Shown: positions 6,692 to 25,320 of the stretch, piece by piece | How the letters are laid out: each line of letters opens with the position of its first letter | Numbering within the stretch: position 1 is the stretch's first letter | Source: a virus | Taxonomy: Duplodnaviria > Caudoviricetes | Reading direction: 5' to 3' (one strand) | Length of the DNA stretch: 25,356 nucleotides | IMG/VR virus record: IMGVR_UViG_3300011443_000052 | Coordinates: 1 to 25,356 of that record | The notes under the pieces: model-generated | The model's input: the letters and a program-made list of their open reading frames with translations, nothing else | The model's database searches: none | Told to the model about the DNA's origin: nothing | Translations under genes and position numbers: made by a program

Positions 6692-7095
6692 CAGGCCGCG
6701 TCATTCCACTGCTTGACGAGCTGGTCGAGCGGCGGCTGTCGCCGCAGCGCCTCGTGCGCCATCCGGGCCCGCCACGGCCGCGCCTTGTAGCCGGGGTGCA
6801 TCTTCTTGCTGAAGATCGTCCCGACGCGGTGCGGCTTGACGCCCGCATCGATGAAGTAGCCGGTGTAGTGCGCGGCGATGACGGCCTTGGTCTGGGTCGC
6901 CGTCTTGCGGCGGATGGAGTCGTGCAGCCGTCCAGGTGCGTGCCCGTCGCCCGCCTTCATGGAGGAGGGACGGACTGGCAGCATCGGACGGCCGATGACG
7001 ACGCCCTCGTCGGCCCACGCCTTGCCGATCGGCTTGAACGCGAGCTTCAGCGACTTGAGCCGCTTCTTGAGGTCGTCGGCACCTTGCAGGCTCAC
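6691..7095 (-). CDS. Neck protein (HK97 gp10-like)
   Basis: LQGADDLKKRL...PGRLHDSI...YTGYFIDAGVKPH...HPGYKARPW pattern; basic protein. Confidence 0.75.
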   Translation of the reverse strand: MSLQGADDLKKRLKSLKLAFKPIGKAWADEGVVIGRPMLPVRPSSMKAGDGHAPGRLHDSIRRKTATQTKAVIAAHYTGYFIDAGVKPHRVGTIFSKKMHPGYKARPWRARMAHEALRRQPPLDQLVKQWNDAA

Positions 7096-7256
7096 GACTC
7101 GGGGATCTCCACCATCTCGGGCTCGGGCGGGAGTTCGGTGTGCTGCTCATGCGTGAACGGGTGCCCGGTCGGAGCCGGCTTCTTCTTCTTGGTGACGGGC
7201 GGCTCGGGCTCGGGCTGCTTCTCCCGGGCGCGGATGCGCTCTGCCGTTCGTGACAT
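7092..7256 (-). CDS. Small Pro/Glu/Lys-rich hypothetical protein, 54 aa
   Basis: Below the ORF-track cutoff; MSRTAERIRAREKQPEPEPPVTKKKKPAPTGHPFTHEQHTELPPEPEMVEIPES fills the gap exactly (ATG abuts the upstream TAG, GTGA overlap downstream). Confidence 0.7.
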   Translation of the reverse strand: MSRTAERIRAREKQPEPEPPVTKKKKPAPTGHPFTHEQHTELPPEPEMVEIPES

Positions 7257-7576: not shown

Positions 7577-9220
7577 TCAGCTCCCGCTAAGTGCGAAGCT
7601 GGTGAACGCGCTGGGGTACAGGGGGGCGAACCAGAGGATGCCCACCAGCGCCACGTCGCGGCCTGCCTTCGAGGGAACGTCCACCTGGAGGGTGTACGTG
7701 CCATCTTCGGCCCACGCGAAGCCCTCGGACGGCCCGATCAAGACGTCGGTGCCGGTCGAGTTGAGCGCGGGGACGTGGACCGGTCGGAGGCCCGAGATGG
7801 AACCGCCGAGCCCGCCCGCGGCCGTGATGTCGGCCCGGAGGTTCGACCACAGCGGTGCGTTCGTGCCCGACGCCTTGGCGTCGATGAACGCCCCGACTGC
7901 CGCCGAGGACAGCCAGATGGTGTCCGGTGCGGAGAACATCGCGCCGTAGCCCGAGATCCACGCATCGCCGAGCCCGGTCGGGTCGGACGGGTCGAATGAG
8001 CCACCGTCGTTGACGATGTTGCTGCCCGAGCCCGAGCCGAGCAGGGCCTCGACGGCCTCCACTTCGGACTCGATGGCGTAGGCCTCGCCGAGGAGGTTCA
8101 GGTACAGCTCAAGGAACGACGGCGACGACCGCTTGAGGAGTTGGAGGGAGATGTCGCCCGTCCCGCCCTTGGTCACGGCCTCGAAGGTCACCGTATCGAT
8201 GGCCGTCTTGTCGCTCTGAAGGACGTCCTTCTCCTCCATCTGCTGCGCGACTGTCGGCCGGGTCACGATGCGCGGGACGATCAGGTTGAGGCCCGAGTCG
8301 GGCGTCGAGATGTGGGTGGTCGTCTCCATGAACGGCCGGCGCTTGTTGATCTTGCCGATGAGGATGTTGGAGTACGTCGGCGGAACGACGCCGATGTTCT
8401 CCTCGGTCACGAGGTCCTGGAGCTCGCGCATCTGCGCGTCGGGGATGCGGTCGCCGGACAGCATCTTGAGCACGGTTGATGCCCATGAGCCGATGGACGG
8501 GGCGTCCTTCTCCTGGGGCGCGGACGGGATGCCGAACTGCGCCCGGTTGCGCTCCTCCATCGCGGCGAAGCGGTCGTCGAACGACGTCCGCATCTCGGTG
8601 ATCTGCGCCGTCACGGGCGAGAGGTCAAGGATCGGAGCCGCCGGGGTCGGGGCCTCCTGCTCTGCCATTGGTTCGGGTCCCTTCTCGTCCGTTCGGACGC
8701 TGATGACTTCGGCCTCGCGGTAGGCGGGCTTGTAGGTCGTGCTTGCGCCGGTGAGGTTCACGCGGTTATGGACGCGGGTGCGCCGACCGCTGATCGTCTC
8801 GACGGACGTGCCGCCGGGGATCTCGGTGAACTCGATGGAGATGCCCTTGACGATGCCCTCGTTGGCGAGCTCAAGGATCTCGTCGCCCGCCTGCGTCTTC
8901 GCGACGCGCATCGTGGCGTAGCCGCCATCGGGTGCGCTCCAGAGGCGGATGGCCTTGCCCGACGGGCGTCGGGTGAGGGTCGGCCGGCTGGCCTGATCGA
9001 GGCCGAGGTGGGCCTCGTGGTTCATACCCATCAGGAGCACGGCCCCGGGCTCGATGCCGTCGAAGGCACCAGCGCGGAACATCTCCGGGCCCTGGACGGT
9101 GTTGATCGCCGTGTCCCACGGCACGAGTCGGACGTCGATCTCGCGCTTCGACAGGTCGCGGACTTGGACGTCGGCCTCGCTGACCAACGCCTGCAACTCG
9201 GGGATGAGTTCGTCTGCCAA
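7577..9220 (-). CDS. Prohead protease-major capsid protein fusion (HK97 fold), 547 aa
   Basis: N-terminal protease-like domain (EMFRAGAF, NHE, GDEILELANEGIVKGISIEF), Pro/Ala linker, then capsid domain (GVVPPTY, QQMEEKD, DISLQLLKRSSPSF); TTG start with SD TAGGAGG. Confidence 0.9.
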   Translation of the reverse strand: MADELIPELQALVSEADVQVRDLSKREIDVRLVPWDTAINTVQGPEMFRAGAFDGIEPGAVLLMGMNHEAHLGLDQASRPTLTRRPSGKAIRLWSAPDGGYATMRVAKTQAGDEILELANEGIVKGISIEFTEIPGGTSVETISGRRTRVHNRVNLTGASTTYKPAYREAEVISVRTDEKGPEPMAEQEAPTPAAPILDLSPVTAQITEMRTSFDDRFAAMEERNRAQFGIPSAPQEKDAPSIGSWASTVLKMLSGDRIPDAQMRELQDLVTEENIGVVPPTYSNILIGKINKRRPFMETTTHISTPDSGLNLIVPRIVTRPTVAQQMEEKDVLQSDKTAIDTVTFEAVTKGGTGDISLQLLKRSSPSFLELYLNLLGEAYAIESEVEAVEALLGSGSGSNIVNDGGSFDPSDPTGLGDAWISGYGAMFSAPDTIWLSSAAVGAFIDAKASGTNAPLWSNLRADITAAGGLGGSISGLRPVHVPALNSTGTDVLIGPSEGFAWAEDGTYTLQVDVPSKAGRDVALVGILWFAPLYPSAFTSFALSGS

Positions 9221-9302
9221 AGGAATGACCTCCTACGCTGCGCTCATGGGCACTTGCGCGGAGGCCACTTCAACGGCGGGGCACTGAGGCCACTGTGCCG
9301 TC
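9221..9302 (-). promoter_or_regulatory. Structured 5' leader of the capsid gene with a duplicated AGTGGCCTC/AGTGCCC motif and an SD-sequestering stem
   Basis: Minus strand AGTGGCCTC-AGTGCCC (9294-9279) and AGTGGCCTC-cgcgca-AGTGCCC (9269-9248); AGUGGCCUCC (9269-9260) pairs over 10 bp, including two G-U, with GGAGGUCAUU (9233-9224). Confidence 0.7.
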
Positions 9303-9320
9303 GGTATTCGTCTGGCGCGG

Positions 9321-9348
9321 ATGCTACCACGCCGCGTGACGCCGTCTA
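9321..9348 (-). promoter_or_regulatory. Putative promoter for the capsid operon
   Basis: TAGACG-16 nt-TAGCAT with an extended -10 TG. Confidence 0.45.
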
Positions 9349-9963
9349 GCGGTTCATGACGCGTCCACCGTGCCACGTATGCGGCGGGTCGTACCAGCGG
9401 ATCGCGACGCCGTGCTTCTCGGCGTAGTACTTCGCCTGGACCGAGGCATGGCGGTAGCCGCGGTTGCTGCCGCCGTTGGGCGCGGCTCGGCGGTAGTCAT
9501 TCCGGGTGTAGGCGTCGTGACCGACCATGAGGATGGAGGTACAGCCCATCCAGTCCGCGAGCAGAGCTGCGACCGGTGCCGACATCGACGACCACGGCAG
9601 GCCGAAGTCGCCCTCGACGTCGATGACGAACCGAGGGCGGTGGTTGGGGTAGCAGTCTGGCGACTCAGCGGCCGAGAAGATCGCCGTCTCGCCGCGCAGC
9701 AGCGGCACGAGGCGATCGGATGGGCAGGCGCACGACAGCGGCACGTCGGCTTGTCCGTTGTGCGGCATGCAGCCGTCCTTCTGCATGACGTAGAGCGGGT
9801 TCGGAAGGTGGAGCGAGCGGACGGTCAGGATGGCGTGGTTGAGCGTGATGACGGGTCCCGGCGGGAAGTCACGGGCCCTGAGCCGCAGCAGCGACGGGCC
9901 CATGCCGACGATCGTGGCCGTCTGGCCGCGGTGCTTGCGGAACAGGGGCGCGATGGTCGTCAC
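9346..9963 (-). CDS. Maf/DUF115-like (sialyltransferase-related fold) putative glycosyltransferase, 205 aa
   Basis: GTG start overlapping the upstream stop; motifs ATIVGMGPSL, VITLNHA, SAPVAALLADWMGCTSILMVGHD. Confidence 0.65.
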   Translation of the reverse strand: MTTIAPLFRKHRGQTATIVGMGPSLLRLRARDFPPGPVITLNHAILTVRSLHLPNPLYVMQKDGCMPHNGQADVPLSCACPSDRLVPLLRGETAIFSAAESPDCYPNHRPRFVIDVEGDFGLPWSSMSAPVAALLADWMGCTSILMVGHDAYTRNDYRRAAPNGGSNRGYRHASVQAKYYAEKHGVAIRWYDPPHTWHGGRVMNR

Positions 9964-10697
9964 TCGAAGCCACGCTCGATGACGTCCCAGTCCACGGGGA
10001 AGGCCCGTCGCATCCTGCTGTCGATGGGGTACGGGCCTGTCTCCCTGCGTCCCTCCTCCATCGTCTGGCGTCCGACGTTGACGCTGCTGCGGGTGGAGGC
10101 GTGGCGCACCCAGAGCCATGCCGGCGAGTTCGATACAGGCATGAGCGGGGCGAGGCGGGCGACGCCAACGTGGTTGACCTCGTAGATGGTCCGCATCCGG
10201 CCGCGCGGCATGTGGAGCGTGCCGAACTGCGCCCACGGCCAGGTGATGCGCCATGCCTCGGAGCCGACAGTCCGCCATCCCACGGGCAGCGTCCAGACGA
10301 TGGGCTGCCGCCGCCGCTCGGCCGATGCCGCTGCCTGGACGCGGGCCATCGCCCACGGCGCGAGGGCGTCGTCATCATCGAGGCGGGTCGTCAGGGTCTC
10401 GTCGCCCCACTTGATGTACCGCTTCCAGTCGGCGTAGGGGCGGTCATGCGGGGAAGACCGCTCTAGCCTGCCTGGAGGTGCGAACACGACCGGCAGGCCC
10501 GCAGACGCGATGGCTGCCTTGCGCTCGGCCAGCAGCGGGTCGGCGGCATCGACCATGACCAGCCATGTCATCCCGCGGCACGTCTGGGCCCGGAGCGATG
10601 CCGCGGTGACGTCGCGCAGCAGCTCCAACCGCTGCCGGTTCACGTCGAGCGGCACGGACGGAGCGTAGGCGGAGCGCGTCAGGATGTAGTGGCGCAC
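9960..10697 (-). CDS. GT-A fold glycosyltransferase (putative rhamnosyl transferase-like), 245 aa
   Basis: HYILTR...RLELLRDVTAASLRAQT...WLVMVD...TTRLDDDDAL (DxD motif)...WLWVRH. Confidence 0.8.
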   Translation of the reverse strand: MRHYILTRSAYAPSVPLDVNRQRLELLRDVTAASLRAQTCRGMTWLVMVDAADPLLAERKAAIASAGLPVVFAPPGRLERSSPHDRPYADWKRYIKWGDETLTTRLDDDDALAPWAMARVQAAASAERRRQPIVWTLPVGWRTVGSEAWRITWPWAQFGTLHMPRGRMRTIYEVNHVGVARLAPLMPVSNSPAWLWVRHASTRSSVNVGRQTMEEGRRETGPYPIDSRMRRAFPVDWDVIERGFE

Positions 10698-11647
10698 CAG
10701 TCCACCAGCACGTCGGCGGCTCGTTGCGCGGCACCCGGGCGTCGGTCGTAGACGAGATCCAGCGCAGCCTCGCGGGCGGCGATCTGGGGAGGACACTCCT
10801 CCAGCGCCTCGTGAACCGCTTCGACGAGCGAGCCTTGCGGCGTCACCTGGACGCCAACGGTGGCGGCATCCCAGAAGCGGAGCCCGTGGTTGATGTTGCG
10901 CCTGTACCACGGCGGGTTCATGACGACGACGGGGCGGCCCGTGCTGGCGAACTCGAACAGGGTGGAGCTTGCGTCGTTGATGTAGACGTCGGCGCGTCGG
11001 CAGACCTCCTCCCACGGCTTCACGACCTCGATGCCGTGCAGCCTGTAGGACGAGGCGAGCTTGTCGATGATCCGCGGGTGCCCCGTGCCGATGACCTCCA
11101 TCCGGTCTGTGAGCTGGTTCAGCATCCGGCCGAACTCCATGTGGGCCGAGCGCGTCTCCCGGCAGACGCGGCAGTCCCAGTGGAACCCGATGGCGACGAC
11201 GGGGGTCCGACCGCGCTTCTTGCGCGGCAGCGTGTCGAGCTTCGCGCAGCCCACCACCTCGACTCGCGCGGCAGGATAGGCGCGACGGTCACGACCGGCA
11301 GGATGCGGTCCTGGATGGAGGAACAGTTGCGCGTCCCGGTTGCGGCCCCCGGCATAGGAGGAGTGCGTCGCGGACTTCGGGTCGCCGCCGAAGGACTGGC
11401 CGCAGCCGTGCTCCATGATGGCCGTCGGTCGGCGGAGGTGGCGGGCCCGGATAAGGTCGCCCGCCGATGCGACGAGGGTGTGCTTCGACTCCGACGGCTT
11501 GGGGAGGTCGCGCCGCCAGCCGGGGAGATCCCGGTCATGCCCACGGCCGATGTAGTGGAAGGCCCCGCGCTGCTCCTCGGGCAGCGCGAGCCATACCGGT
11601 GCGAGGTGATCGACGAAGTGACCCTCCGCCGCGAGGACGTCGATCAC
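10679..11647 (-). CDS. GT-B fold transferase (CDP-glycerol glycerophosphotransferase TagB/TagF-like), 322 aa
   Basis: GTG at 11647 overlaps the portal stop; EHG, VVGCAKLD, GHPR, ADVYINDASSTLFEFASTGRPVVVMN, GAAQRAAD motifs. Confidence 0.8.
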   Translation of the reverse strand: MIDVLAAEGHFVDHLAPVWLALPEEQRGAFHYIGRGHDRDLPGWRRDLPKPSESKHTLVASAGDLIRARHLRRPTAIMEHGCGQSFGGDPKSATHSSYAGGRNRDAQLFLHPGPHPAGRDRRAYPAARVEVVGCAKLDTLPRKKRGRTPVVAIGFHWDCRVCRETRSAHMEFGRMLNQLTDRMEVIGTGHPRIIDKLASSYRLHGIEVVKPWEEVCRRADVYINDASSTLFEFASTGRPVVVMNPPWYRRNINHGLRFWDAATVGVQVTPQGSLVEAVHEALEECPPQIAAREAALDLVYDRRPGAAQRAADVLVDWCATTS

Positions 11648-13026
11648 GCGGTCTCGGACAGGCCGTAGGACTTCTTGCAGCGCGGACAGGTGCCGGCGAA
11701 CGGACCCGCCTCGGCCAGCAGCCGGTTGCACTTCCGTGATGCCCCGCGGATGACCACGACGCCGCTACAGCGCGTGGGCCCCGCCATCCGGGTGGATGGC
11801 GTTCCGATGGGGAAGGGGATCGACGACGGCACCGACGCGGGCGGCGTGGGCTTGACCGGCGACAGCTCCGGGCTACCGGGGATGAGTCCCTCCATCTCCT
11901 GCGCGTTCTCCGGGGTCAGGACACCCGACTCGATGCCCGTCTTGTAGACGTCGTAACGGGTCTTGATGTCGGCTCGGAGGAGGCCTTGCGTGTAGAACTC
12001 AAGGTGGATGGAGCGCGGCTGGAGGTCGGAGAACGCCTGCTCGATGGGCTCCAGGTAGTTCGGGATCAGGCAGCCCTTGGCGAACGACGTCCAGACCTCG
12101 GTGATGTTCTGGTAGGTCAGGCTGGAGCCGGGGGAGTTGTACTCCATGAGCATGCCGGGGATGCCGTACAGGCGGGCGGCATCGCCGTTGTTGTACTCGC
12201 GGGCGGTGAGCATCTGCGCGCCGTGCTCGTTGATCGGGTGGTCCTTGACCTCCAAGTCGCCCGTGGTGACCTGGACCATGTTCGCCTCGCGTGCCGTCCA
12301 CTGGTCCAGCAGCGCCTCGGACTCGTTCTCGTCGAGGTCCATCCCGGTATGCAGCTCGGTGGTCGGACGCCCGCCCTGCGCGTAGAACCGTGCCGCCCAT
12401 TCCTGCGCCTCGACGGCCACGGACGCCGCCGCGCCGGCCATCTGCAAGGGCCCCATGCCGCGGAGCGCACCCGGCTCCTTGAGGTAGGTGATGTGGACGA
12501 ACTGGCCGTCAGGGGTGGCGGGCGAGTAGCGGGTGGACGTGATGTTGCCCCAGGTGTAGATCGGGCGCAGCCGGTTGCGCGTGTTCTCCTCGACGTTGAG
12601 CTCGTTGAGCGGCACCAGCATCAGCGCCGCCGCGGTGCCATCGGGGTCGCGCTTGGCGATCCAGAGCACCGTCTCGCCACGGCTCGCCATCTGGTAGGCC
12701 ATGTCGCGGTAGGCATCGCGCGGCGTGGTGTACGGGTCCGGGCGGGCGATCACTTGCGGCGTCGGGTCCAGGAGTGCGCCATTGCGGAACGCCTGCATCG
12801 GCAGGGACCCGACGGTGTTGCTGATGAGCGTCACGGCCCGCTGGATCGACGGCACGCCCATCGCCTGCGCGACGGACGGCAGGCGGTAGGCCGGCCCCTT
12901 CTTGTGCAGCCTCGCGAGCTGCTCCTCCATCGATGGGAAGACCTCGAAGTCGTAGGCACCGCGGGTCTGCACGGGCTGCATCGGCTGGAGGGACAGGAAG
13001 TCGGCGATCCGTGACAGGGCGCTCAT
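11644..13026 (-). CDS. HK97-family portal protein with a C-terminal Com-like zinc ribbon, 460 aa
   Basis: VPSIQRAVTLISNTVGSLP, GMGPL, FYAQGGRP, ARLYGIPGMLM, LTYQN, YLEPIEQAFS, LLRADIKTRY, LTPENAQEMEGL; extension RC-x12-CNRLLAE...TCPRCK. Confidence 0.93.
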   Translation of the reverse strand: MSALSRIADFLSLQPMQPVQTRGAYDFEVFPSMEEQLARLHKKGPAYRLPSVAQAMGVPSIQRAVTLISNTVGSLPMQAFRNGALLDPTPQVIARPDPYTTPRDAYRDMAYQMASRGETVLWIAKRDPDGTAAALMLVPLNELNVEENTRNRLRPIYTWGNITSTRYSPATPDGQFVHITYLKEPGALRGMGPLQMAGAAASVAVEAQEWAARFYAQGGRPTTELHTGMDLDENESEALLDQWTAREANMVQVTTGDLEVKDHPINEHGAQMLTAREYNNGDAARLYGIPGMLMEYNSPGSSLTYQNITEVWTSFAKGCLIPNYLEPIEQAFSDLQPRSIHLEFYTQGLLRADIKTRYDVYKTGIESGVLTPENAQEMEGLIPGSPELSPVKPTPPASVPSSIPFPIGTPSTRMAGPTRCSGVVVIRGASRKCNRLLAEAGPFAGTCPRCKKSYGLSETA

Positions 13027-23801: not shown

Positions 23802-24191
23802 GTGCTCGCCCAGAACGAGCTCGCCCGGGCAACACGGGGTGAGGACTTCAAGCGCCTGGTTCGGGCTGCCGCCGCGCTAGTCGGGATCTACGACGACAAG
23901 GCCCTCGCGGAGGCCGTCGGGCGCCAGCGGAACACCGTCGCCGGATGGTGGAGGGGCGCGAAGCCCGAGCCCGACACGATCCAGCCCCTCGGCAGGGTTA
24001 CCCGCCTGGATGCCGACGAGCTGTACCGCTACCTGTACCTGGGCGGCCCGGTGCCGCGTCTCGCGCAGCCGGGTTCGCCTGCGGATCGGGCGCTCCAAGA
24101 AGGACTGCAGCGGGGTCTGCCACCCCCGCCCGACGAAGGTCCTGAGCAGCCCGGGCCGTTGCCTCCGCAACGGCCTGGCGGAACCGATTGA
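23802..24191 (+). CDS. Immunity repressor (XRE-type HTH), 129 aa
   Basis: GTG with AAAGAGGGG upstream; DKALAEAVGRQRNTVAGWWRGAKPEPDTIQPLGRVTRL; divergent from cro; no recognisable S24 peptidase domain. Confidence 0.8.
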   Translation: MLAQNELARATRGEDFKRLVRAAAALVGIYDDKALAEAVGRQRNTVAGWWRGAKPEPDTIQPLGRVTRLDADELYRYLYLGGPVPRLAQPGSPADRALQEGLQRGLPPPPDEGPEQPGPLPPQRPGGTD

Positions 24192-24330
24192 GGATGGCCT
24201 CCTCGGTGGGCATCTGGGTCCCCGCGCCGTCGTCGACCCGGCGATGGTCGGCCGGCGGGCTGCTCGCCTCGAGCGGTTGAGCATCCACCCGATGGCGGCC
24301 CGTGTCATCCCCGAAGTTGTGTCAGCTTCG

Positions 24331-25320
24331 ATGACAACGGCCCGTCGGCTGTCCACCGGGTATCCACAGTCCGGGACCTACGCGCTCGCGGTCCTGCTCG
24401 TCGCGTTCGCCTCCGCCCAGGCATCGCTCGCGACCGTCTCCCGCATGCTCACCAACATCGGGATCCACGGGACGCCGTTCTCCGACTGGCAGCACTACGC
24501 CATGTCGTGGAACCGGGTGGCCTCCGGCGGCCCGCTCTACGACCCGGCGCAGCTCGCGGGTCCATTCCACTTCCCCGACATGCTGTTCACCGGGTGGGCG
24601 TACTCGCCGCCCTCCGTGATCCTGTGGGCGCCGTTCGCCTGGTGGCCGGGCGGGTACGTCTTGTGGACGGTCGTCAACGTCGGGCTGCTGCTGACGGCCC
24701 TGTGGGCGGCGAGCTCCCGCCAGTGGCGCGCACACCGGCTGATCGCGTTCGGCGTGATCCTCCTGGTCCTCGGTCTGTACCCGCCGTTCATCGAGGCGGC
24801 GTCACTCGGCAACCCGGACCTCGCGCTCGCGGGGCTGCTCATGTGGGCGTGGCTGAGTCCGCGGTGGGCCGTCGCCGCCGGGGTGCTCGGCGGGCTGGCG
24901 AAGCTCGCTCCCGCCGCGATCCTGCTCTGGGTCAGCCGGGACGGCCGGCGGTACACCGTCGCGGGCTTCGCCATCCTTGCGGGGGTGTCGCTCCTGCTGC
25001 TGCCGCTGTCGGGGGCATGGCTGGACTTCGCGACGACGCTGCGCCTCGCGCAGGCGCCCTGCGGCGGGGAGAACGTGGCGGTGGCGTGCCTGTTCCCCGA
25101 CCCGGTCGTCGGGCGGACAGTGGGCATCCTGCTCGCGGGGACGATGTCCGTGGCGTCGGCGTTCGTCCCGTCCCGCTGGTTCGGGTTCGCCCTCGCCTGT
25201 CTCGCGTACCCGGTCGCGAACCCGGATCTCCGCGGCCACACGTTCCTGCCGCTCGTCCCAGTCGTGGTCGCCGGGGCGATGGAGATCACACGCCGTCGAT
25301 GGTCAGGTTGTACTGCTTGA
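24331..25320 (+). CDS. GT87-like (GT-C fold) polytopic membrane glycosyltransferase, probable lysogenic conversion gene
   Basis: DWQHY...GGPLYDP...AYSPP..ILWAPF...LWTVVN...GNPD...LAKLAP with many TM segments; start codon uncertain. Confidence 0.85.
   Translation: MTTARRLSTGYPQSGTYALAVLLVAFASAQASLATVSRMLTNIGIHGTPFSDWQHYAMSWNRVASGGPLYDPAQLAGPFHFPDMLFTGWAYSPPSVILWAPFAWWPGGYVLWTVVNVGLLLTALWAASSRQWRAHRLIAFGVILLVLGLYPPFIEAASLGNPDLALAGLLMWAWLSPRWAVAAGVLGGLAKLAPAAILLWVSRDGRRYTVAGFAILAGVSLLLLPLSGAWLDFATTLRLAQAPCGGENVAVACLFPDPVVGRTVGILLAGTMSVASAFVPSRWFGFALACLAYPVANPDLRGHTFLPLVPVVVAGAMEITRRRWSGCTA

Follow-up and report, generated by a model that had tools for sequence, protein, structure and literature searches.

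A conserved RNA leader ahead of a phage head operon and a Com-like zinc ribbon on the portal protein: a candidate translational switch

The virus record IMGVR_UViG_3300011443_000052 (Duplodnaviria; Caudoviricetes) is a linear sequence of 25,356 bases, which we analyzed over its full length and refer to as the window. Its genes, which lie almost exclusively on the minus strand, include those for integrase, HNH, terminase, portal, head and tail. We propose that the leader in front of its head operon is a translational ON switch similar to the Com/mom system of phage Mu, and that it would be operated by a zinc ribbon fused to the C-terminus of the portal protein. Judging from sequence comparisons and computed folds we assign this reading a probability of roughly 0.6, and we consider it very probable that the ribbon binds the conserved boxes in the leader at all.

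The gene presumed to be controlled is located at 7577–9220 on the minus strand and encodes a protein of 547 amino acids (aa), in which a prohead protease, a scaffold and the major capsid protein are fused (phrog_2263 major head, E 2.8e-42; a weak match to PF04586 at residues 93–175). A preliminary description of this DNA had placed a capsid gene here; it is indeed a head gene with a TTG start, but a protease-capsid fusion rather than a plain capsid gene. The same description had reported two copies of a bipartite motif in the leader. The pattern AGTGGCCTC-N(0-8)-AGTGCCC has exactly two matches in the window, at 9294–9279 and 9269–9248 on the minus strand, and two matches occurred in none of 100 shuffles (mean 0.00). 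Folding of 9302–9218 on the minus strand also reproduced both structures that had been described, i.e. the GACGGC/GCCGUU stem of the first copy and the 10-bp stem AGUGGCCUCC/GGAGGUCAUU of the second copy with its extension by GCGC/GCGU. The fold of these 85 nucleotides (nt) has a z-score of -3.60 and its stability was equaled in none of 200 shuffles. The plus strand of the segment is unremarkable with a z-score of 0.62.

The second stem belongs to a stem-loop at 9224–9269 on the minus strand, which we refer to as the OFF stem-loop. It buries the Shine-Dalgarno (SD) sequence GGAGG (9229–9233, minus strand), which is followed by a pyrimidine-rich spacer and by the TTG start at 9220, 8 nt past the SD. 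As had been claimed, the SD is inaccessible in the predicted fold: its pairing probability is 1.0, and the computed cost of opening is 13.8 kcal/mol for the SD and 17.8 kcal/mol for the whole ribosome footprint. The first motif copy contains a small hairpin, here termed Com box 1 (9279–9293, minus strand), consisting of GU, GGC, the loop CUCAGU, GCC and C with a pair probability of 0.96–0.98. It is presented by a carrier stem, P1 (9271–9303, minus strand), that folds in the window and varies in sequence among relatives. Com box 2 (9248–9268, minus strand) is a predicted ON helix, GGC/GCC with a 12-nt loop, identified by parsing, co-variation and folds of the nascent RNA. Its 5’ arm doubles as the anti-SD strand, therefore box 2 and the SD stem are mutually exclusive.

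The HK97-type portal protein (460 aa; 11644–13026, minus strand; PF04860, E 2.4e-46; phrog_12) ends in a proline-rich linker and a zinc ribbon with four cysteines at positions 420, 433, 447 and 450 (11671–11772, minus strand). Mu Com as translated from record AF083977 matches a profile of 81 portal ribbons (97%, E 1.2e-10). In the alignment 10 residues are inserted between Cys1 and Cys2, the first two of the four cysteines, and in the predicted structure of the ribbon (predicted local distance difference test score, pLDDT, 80.6) this insert forms a beta-hairpin with strands 15–18 and 21–24. Among Pfam families, PF10122 (Com) is the one matched by most ribbons (21 of 81 at E<=0.01), and two of 12 ribbon pieces tested passed its cut-off (L091, L074; L numbers denote loci). 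PMC6483171 proposes, from a model, an RNA surface of Com made up of Arg, Asn-Lys and Arg. These positions are kept in the portal ribbons: R before Cys1 in 78, K/R after Asn/Gly in 69 and Cx[RK]C in 76 of the 81 sequences. The ribbon of the window has R, N-R and R before Cys1, after Cys2 and before Cys4, respectively. In sequence the portal ribbons are relatives of Com, the RNA-binding activator from Mu. A fold search with the 52-residue ribbon model gave a single row (Z 2.2) and was uninformative, a sequence search of the PDB with the ribbon returned generic ribbons only (best E 0.008), and in the ESM Atlas a Com cluster at rank 6 (score 0.89) is a lead only.

The ribbon is present in 110 of the 120 portal homologues listed, out of 480 found. 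The ten homologues without it form a nested clade that lost the ribbon; they stop ahead of the ribbon position or retain just a low-complexity tail. In many portals (P0004–P0006 and P0010–P0012 among them) 60–190 low-complexity residues follow the ribbon. One clade (L047, L048, L052, L053, L055, L056, L058) has a shortened ribbon that ends in Cys-x4-His, and the full leader of the GU type described below is kept there.

Loci related to the window were taken from scans of viral contigs, metagenomes and genomes, using the best 80 of each and dropping the window’s own record. Alignments were required as queries, as a scan of viral contigs with the single capsid-fusion protein found no relatives. 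A leader profile was built from 48 leaders picked by pattern, the picking resting partly on the SD, and 11 divergent leaders were added by hand. The profile matched at most once per locus, always on the gene strand and ahead of head genes; further leader copies elsewhere in the loci were thereby ruled out. Rfam gave no match at gathering score in sets of 12 and 5 loci, and on positions 8900–9700 of the window just a chance microRNA match on the opposite strand.

Comparison of the leaders changed the picture of what is conserved. Instead of the word of 9+7 letters emphasized in the preliminary description, relatives conserve a pattern, G[U/A/C]-stem-C...G[U/A/C]-stem’-C, in which the letters of the stem vary freely. 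The weak UUG mentioned there is common but also dispensable: among 90 thinned leaders the start codon is ATG in 47, TTG in 38 and GTG in 5, including a few wrong picks. The Com site of Mu fits the box pattern with GA instead of GU and is the sole match within Mu 960–1170. Of 111 leaders, a strict parser recovered box 1 in 82, where shuffles predict 10.9, and box 2 in 98, where they predict 30.3, although it calls box 1 box 2 in several leaders (e.g. L028, L063, L072, L096, L142, L215, L257) and misses others; three of 114 leaders without an anchor had been dropped before parsing. Among 68 parsed leaders there are 26 different box-1 stems.

The covariation analysis suggested in the preliminary description revealed compensatory changes in box 1 as well as in the SD stem. 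In the unfitted alignment of 48 leaders 85% of the box-1 cells are paired, and the three pairs of this box show 6, 19 and 8 both-side changes, respectively. The box-2 helix is paired in 92% (middle pair GC in 34, AU in 7 and GU in 3 of 48), and the OFF/SD stem in 91% with co-variation support at its outer pairs. The co-variation score of this alignment lies above all 500 shuffles and all slid controls. RNAalifold retained only 5 anti-SD pairs on the raw alignment because the variable parts of the leader align badly. In the window fold the flanking G pairs with the closing C around a bulged U, and for the Mu site PMC6483171 proposes a cross-loop C-G pair and a flipped A. Based on these two points we infer that each box is a two-fold symmetric helix of 3–4 bp with a C-G pair closing both ends and a bulged U or A in each half-site.

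Burial of the SD is also a common property of the leaders. The median cost of SD opening is 12.0 kcal/mol in 109 leaders compared to 4.9 kcal/mol in 64 control starts from the same loci, neither set being independent, and the start codon lies 8–9 nt from the SD in 73 of 90 leaders. In 58 of the 90 the complete capsid fusion comes first after the leader. The remaining 32 are followed mostly by short basic open reading frames (ORFs) ahead of the capsid fusion, in addition to two truncated capsid ORFs and a few erroneous picks, and we therefore regard the leader as heading an operon rather than the capsid gene itself. Short basic ORFs between leader and capsid gene are found in about one third of the loci (e.g. 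L026, L046, L063, L129), overlap or abut the next gene, and also persist in phages without the ribbon. They carry a KRGRP motif or an end resembling a helix-extension-helix, and may be internal DNA-binding proteins.

We then asked whether ribbon and leader belong together. In 98 distinct loci that contain both the portal end and the capsid start, ribbon and leader are both present in 81 and both absent in 17, the A4 scan having contributed ribbon-less loci of an outgroup. The leader is thus not equally common without a Com-like domain (none of the 17 ribbon-less loci), with the reservation that this distribution amounts to one event on the tree. Six of the 81 positive loci have the shortened CCCH ribbon. 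Where ribbon-less loci were inspected by eye, the following gene mostly begins at the portal stop codon or overlaps it.

The base following the G in the boxes separates the loci into a GA class and a GU class, which were read by hand (25 GA, 53 GU; 3 ties were dropped, leaving 78). A Glu three residues before Cys3 is found in 22 GA and 2 GU loci and is missing in 3 GA and 51 GU loci. On the starred branches of the tree 5.5 of 7 independent pairs are concordant for this trait and none opposite (median p 0.03). For Arg/Lys six residues after Cys2 the value is 5.7 of 9 independent pairs (p 0.03), for Gly five after Cys2 and Gly two before Cys3 p is 0.125 each. In Mu, Com carries both the Glu and the Lys, and its site is of the GA type. 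The length of the insert between Cys1 and Cys2 was rejected as a determinant of the class (p 0.375).

A further scan of viral contigs started from the RNA and used the box-2 motif alone. It yielded 19 loci, 18 of which contain a ribbon; the nineteenth is the contig of L007, whose ribbon-bearing portal lies beyond the flank. Five of these loci (L265, L267, L269, L270, L277) represent a second clade of portals, again with the ribbon at the C-terminus. This clade is 43–79% identical internally and cannot be aligned to the portal of the window (best E 0.011). Their leaders are nearly the same as those of the window family and precede S78-capsid fusions or S49 proteases, a pairing that suggests exchange of a cassette between unrelated head modules. 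In L264 a stand-alone ORF for a Com-like ribbon of about 40 residues (7054–7180, minus strand) ends 32 nt before the leader. This leader has box 2 only and lies ahead of protease and capsid genes, and a portal-like gene is located downstream of the capsid gene. A six-frame search of loci L003–L258 found no stand-alone ribbon.

Taken together, the ribbon, the RNA pattern, the compensatory changes, the co-occurrence and the co-variation of ribbon and RNA lend good comparative support to the Com/mom-like reading put forward in the preliminary description. In our version of it, the leader stem would hide the ribosome-binding site of the protease-capsid gene, and the portal ribbon would bind the two RNA boxes and hold the site open, so that head proteins would be made only once portal is present. 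Box 1, which folds unaided, could serve as the loading site. Box 2 would appear transiently in the growing RNA, and neighboring ribbons, probably belonging to a single portal ring, would capture it ahead of the formation of the SD stem. The genes that are coupled downstream of the first start would follow, and the same stem may also end transcription in some relatives. In folds of the nascent window RNA box 1 is formed throughout (0.96–0.98). Limiting the number of portal-less shells by such licensing of capsid translation could be the purpose of the arrangement.

Several results weigh against this reading and have to be set beside it. The window ribbon alone matches PF10122 with E 0.077 and 12.9 bits, under the Pfam cut-off of 22.9, and the boxes of the window read GU, whereas the core selected by Com is GAG. 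The box pattern alone is loose, with 48 matches on the minus strand of the window; it is the fixed position of the boxes and not the pattern alone that carries weight. The central CCUCC/GGAGG pairs of the anti-SD show no both-side changes. Box 2 reaches a probability of 0.43–0.44 in the nascent window RNA when the 3’ end is at 9248–9244 and then vanishes, the SD stem being complete by 9228. In most relatives unaided box 2 is close to 0, a rough value as the folds partly included untranscribed promoter sequence, and the ON state costs 14–18 kcal/mol at equilibrium. Because of these nascent folds we favor capture during transcription by several ribbons over melting of the finished stem. In addition, a U-rich tail after the stem hints at termination. 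On the comparative side, the presence or absence of ribbon and leader is a single change on the portal tree and has no statistical weight. Loci of the ten nested ribbon-less homologues, which would bear on this, were not recovered in the P0060, A4, P0106 and P0102 scans or in two samples of 401 genomes around G001. The GA/GU test covered five residue traits, was post hoc and uncorrected and used a FastTree tree, and if ribbon and leader travel as one cassette, as they may, exchange could mimic co-variation. A one-residue code for the class fails in L267 and L269, where the two best traits predict GA and the boxes are GU. L264 has its stand-alone ribbon instead of a portal fusion. Finally, the small-share sequencing runs covered (four of five) contained short contig pieces of relatives only and were uninformative on transcript start, strand and 3’ ends.

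The U-rich tail leads to the alternative we take most seriously, transcription attenuation. Here the SD-bearing stem and the tail would act as an intrinsic terminator, and binding of the ribbon to box 2 would allow read-through. The tail itself is pronounced: the 8 nt after the stem contain on average 4.6 U in 109 leaders compared to 1.6 in 64 control starts, the U fraction is 0.63–0.86 at the three positions directly after the stem, and 23 of 90 leaders have a positive score of the d’Aubenton-Carafa type. TTG starts are enriched as well (38 of 90 vs 5 of 64 controls). Yet the median terminator score is -8.2 and that of the window -18.5, on a re-coded E. coli-derived scale that is rough for a GC-rich host, a terminator scan of the window did not pick the stem, and the first U’s of the tail can pair with the box flank. 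The 3’ arm is a near-perfect SD (a feature on which the leaders were partly picked) with a start 8–9 nt away in 73 of 90 leaders, and translation of a read-through RNA would still be blocked. We consider attenuation as the main function of the stem unlikely.

Even less likely in our view is that the boxes tie the capsid mRNA to the portal ring, or that the ribbon represses, while the SD stem is opened by other means. Fusion of the ribbon to the portal C-terminus in two clades that cannot be aligned would fit tethering, four half-sites per leader would suit a ring, box 1 lies outside the switch helix, and the cost of opening is high for one small domain. On the other hand, in most leaders box 2 and the anti-SD strand overlap, and box 2 shows co-variation as a separate helix, which favors opening upon binding, and the leader next to the stand-alone ribbon of L264 has only box 2.

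That ribbon and leader are merely inherited side by side, with a leader that is protein-independent or under host control and a ribbon that is a structural appendage of the portal, we regard as quite improbable. The single tree event behind their joint presence and absence would be expected in this case, the residue-to-base code is not clean, and the six loci with a shortened CCCH ribbon still keep the full leader. However, it was both the protein of Mu and the RNA site of Mu that were matched, the combination reappears in an unrelated portal clade, alongside S78 as well as S49 proteases, and together with a free ribbon gene, and ribbon and RNA co-vary in independent pairs.

A promoter is predicted directly ahead of the leader (9321–9348, minus strand; 8 of 12 consensus matches), with the -35-like hexamer TAGACG at 9348–9343, a spacing of 16 nt and the -10-like hexamer TAGCAT at 9326–9321. 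A promoter scan of the window found none above threshold, including this pair. A -10-like hexamer occurs at the equivalent position in 53 of 90 thinned leaders. Its spacing to the -35-like hexamer is two-peaked, 8 nt in 13 and 18 nt in 19 of the 53 leaders, i.e. one helical turn apart (L095, L106, L206 versus L047, L090), and the 8-nt spacing is unlike a sigma-70 promoter. A conserved unpaired 5’ segment lies near the inferred transcription start (9304–9313, minus strand); its GAA is invariant in the 48 aligned leaders and the fuller motif is found in 54 of 90. It could be a pause or promoter element. P2 Ogr and P4 Delta are zinc-finger activators that act on DNA. A comparable action of the ribbon on this promoter, with hairpins that merely tune translation, would agree with the two-peaked spacing and with each box being an inverted repeat, but is the least probable alternative, as the boxes are located past the inferred start, retain G-U pairs and remain paired although their stem letters vary freely, and as the best-matching family is Com, with no Ogr/Delta model in the matches listed (25 of 36 Pfam families).

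Returning to the ribbon-operated switch, a location of the ribbon on the portal may do no more than delay head synthesis until the terminase-portal operon has been expressed, which the free gene of L264 would do as well. A more elaborate possibility, which we put forward tentatively and consider less likely than not, is that the portal ring senses the state of assembly. Free rings with twelve ribbons each would grip the nascent RNA of the head operon and license capsid translation; in the prohead the ribbons would face inward and be clipped by the prohead protease at R-(S/A/T) in the linker, so that capsid synthesis would be metered per unused portal. Such fusions would have arisen at least twice, and ribbon and RNA would co-evolve via one bulged base. 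Portal C-termini face the capsid interior. In 63 of 81 portals R-(S/A/T) is located 3–14 residues ahead of the ribbon, compared to 0.127 per background window; it is not universal, as the linker of the window has R-M at that place. Motifs like it are present near the N-terminus of 58 of 120 portals and also at two head-fusion junctions, which suggests that the motif is a prohead-protease site. In the fuller form (Q/E)-x-R-(S/A/T) the motif recurs in the portal linker and N-terminus and at the junctions of the head fusion, and is a candidate cleavage site that would release the ribbon.

The likeness to Com/mom extends over both partners. A CCCC ribbon alignable to Com (PF10122; AF083977) is combined with a short hairpin whose loop reads C-N(2-3)-G-x and which is flanked by G-x and C, and an adjacent stem buries the initiation signals, here by prediction. 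Relatives of the GA class (25 of 78) carry exactly the CC(N)2-3GAG core of Com. There are also clear differences. The boxes of the window read CC(N)3GUG, with U for A in the same geometry, and 53 of the 78 loci classed have GU. Com is a free protein of 62 aa, whereas the ribbon forms the C-terminal domain of a portal of 460 aa and, in the window, has a 10-residue insert. The target is a head operon up to 6.7 kb away with its own predicted promoter, whereas the Mu site lies inside com ahead of mom. The leader has two boxes and Mu has one, and the arm shared with the blocking stem is the 5’ one in box 2 and the 3’ one in the Mu site.

Two other phage systems are similar in part. In phi29 the pRNA (prohead RNA) is a non-coding RNA in its own right and part of the packaging motor at the portal vertex. 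It shares with our system a structured RNA associated with the portal vertex, but the element described here is a 5’ leader containing the SD of the next gene and has no Rfam match. In P22 free scaffold represses translation of its own gene. Here, too, a head-assembly protein controls translation and ties synthesis to the assembly state; the difference is that P22 represses its own gene, while we propose activation in trans by the portal via a Com-type domain. Autoregulation of the P22 scaffolding protein is mentioned in bioRxiv 10.1101/2022.12.13.520362.

Com-family ribbons linked to genes other than mom have been described before: com-like genes precede L-type bacteriocin, tailocin cargo and levansucrase genes in Pseudomonas, and their general role is called unexplored (PMC6240691). 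These are stand-alone genes of about 60 aa, and the accessible part names no RNA site, portal fusion or capsid target (PMC6240691). The accessible part of PMC11556095 merely lists one com-like gene. The literature covered (article texts, mostly from outside the subscription journals) gave no account of a portal-fused Com domain or of the leader. The leader, which is shared by many uncultured phages, is a real, conserved element that resembles Com/mom in its proposed working but is set apart by the portal fusion, by the head-operon target and, in the window, by the GAG core of Com, which it replaces with GUG. Matching of capsid to portal and avoidance of portal-less shells are usually ascribed to nucleation by protein-protein contacts; if our reading is true, a portal acting as mRNA-binding activator adds direct control of capsid synthesis. 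The system is compact, comprising a domain of 35–45 residues and a leader of 100 nt. Dozens of natural ribbon-RNA pairs in the GA and GU classes would offer a route to Com-RNA recognition and to compact orthogonal translation switches. For the complex of Com with RNA, the structure is described as still undetermined in PMC6483171.

The host of the window phage is likely a member of the Chloroflexota, because one capsid homologue is named from a metagenome-assembled genome (MAG) of Ca. Limnocylindrales and a contig of 2.69 Mb from a Chloroflexia MAG contains one related locus. Four other related loci are on short contigs binned to other taxa. The nearest annotated phages are about 30% identical to the window in the portal. 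In the Chloroflexia MAG (G001:C1 17821–19174; L218, L225) several reading frames share the pieces of the portal gene, from either a sequencing error or decay of the prophage, and ribbon and leader are present there.

In the window the ATG of the portal gene overlaps the terminase stop codon. Portal and leader are separated by about 2.3 kb that contain three inserted genes (9346–11647, minus strand), which resemble a glycerophosphotransferase, a rhamnosyltransferase and, weakly, MptE. These sugar- and phosphate-transferase-like genes are no part of the switch. The gap between portal and leader is below 300 nt in 31 and above 1000 nt in 39 of 79 loci. Relatives have inserts of up to 6.7 kb at this junction of portal and head genes. 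A further glycosyltransferase, of family GT87, is encoded at 24010–25320 on the plus strand of the window.

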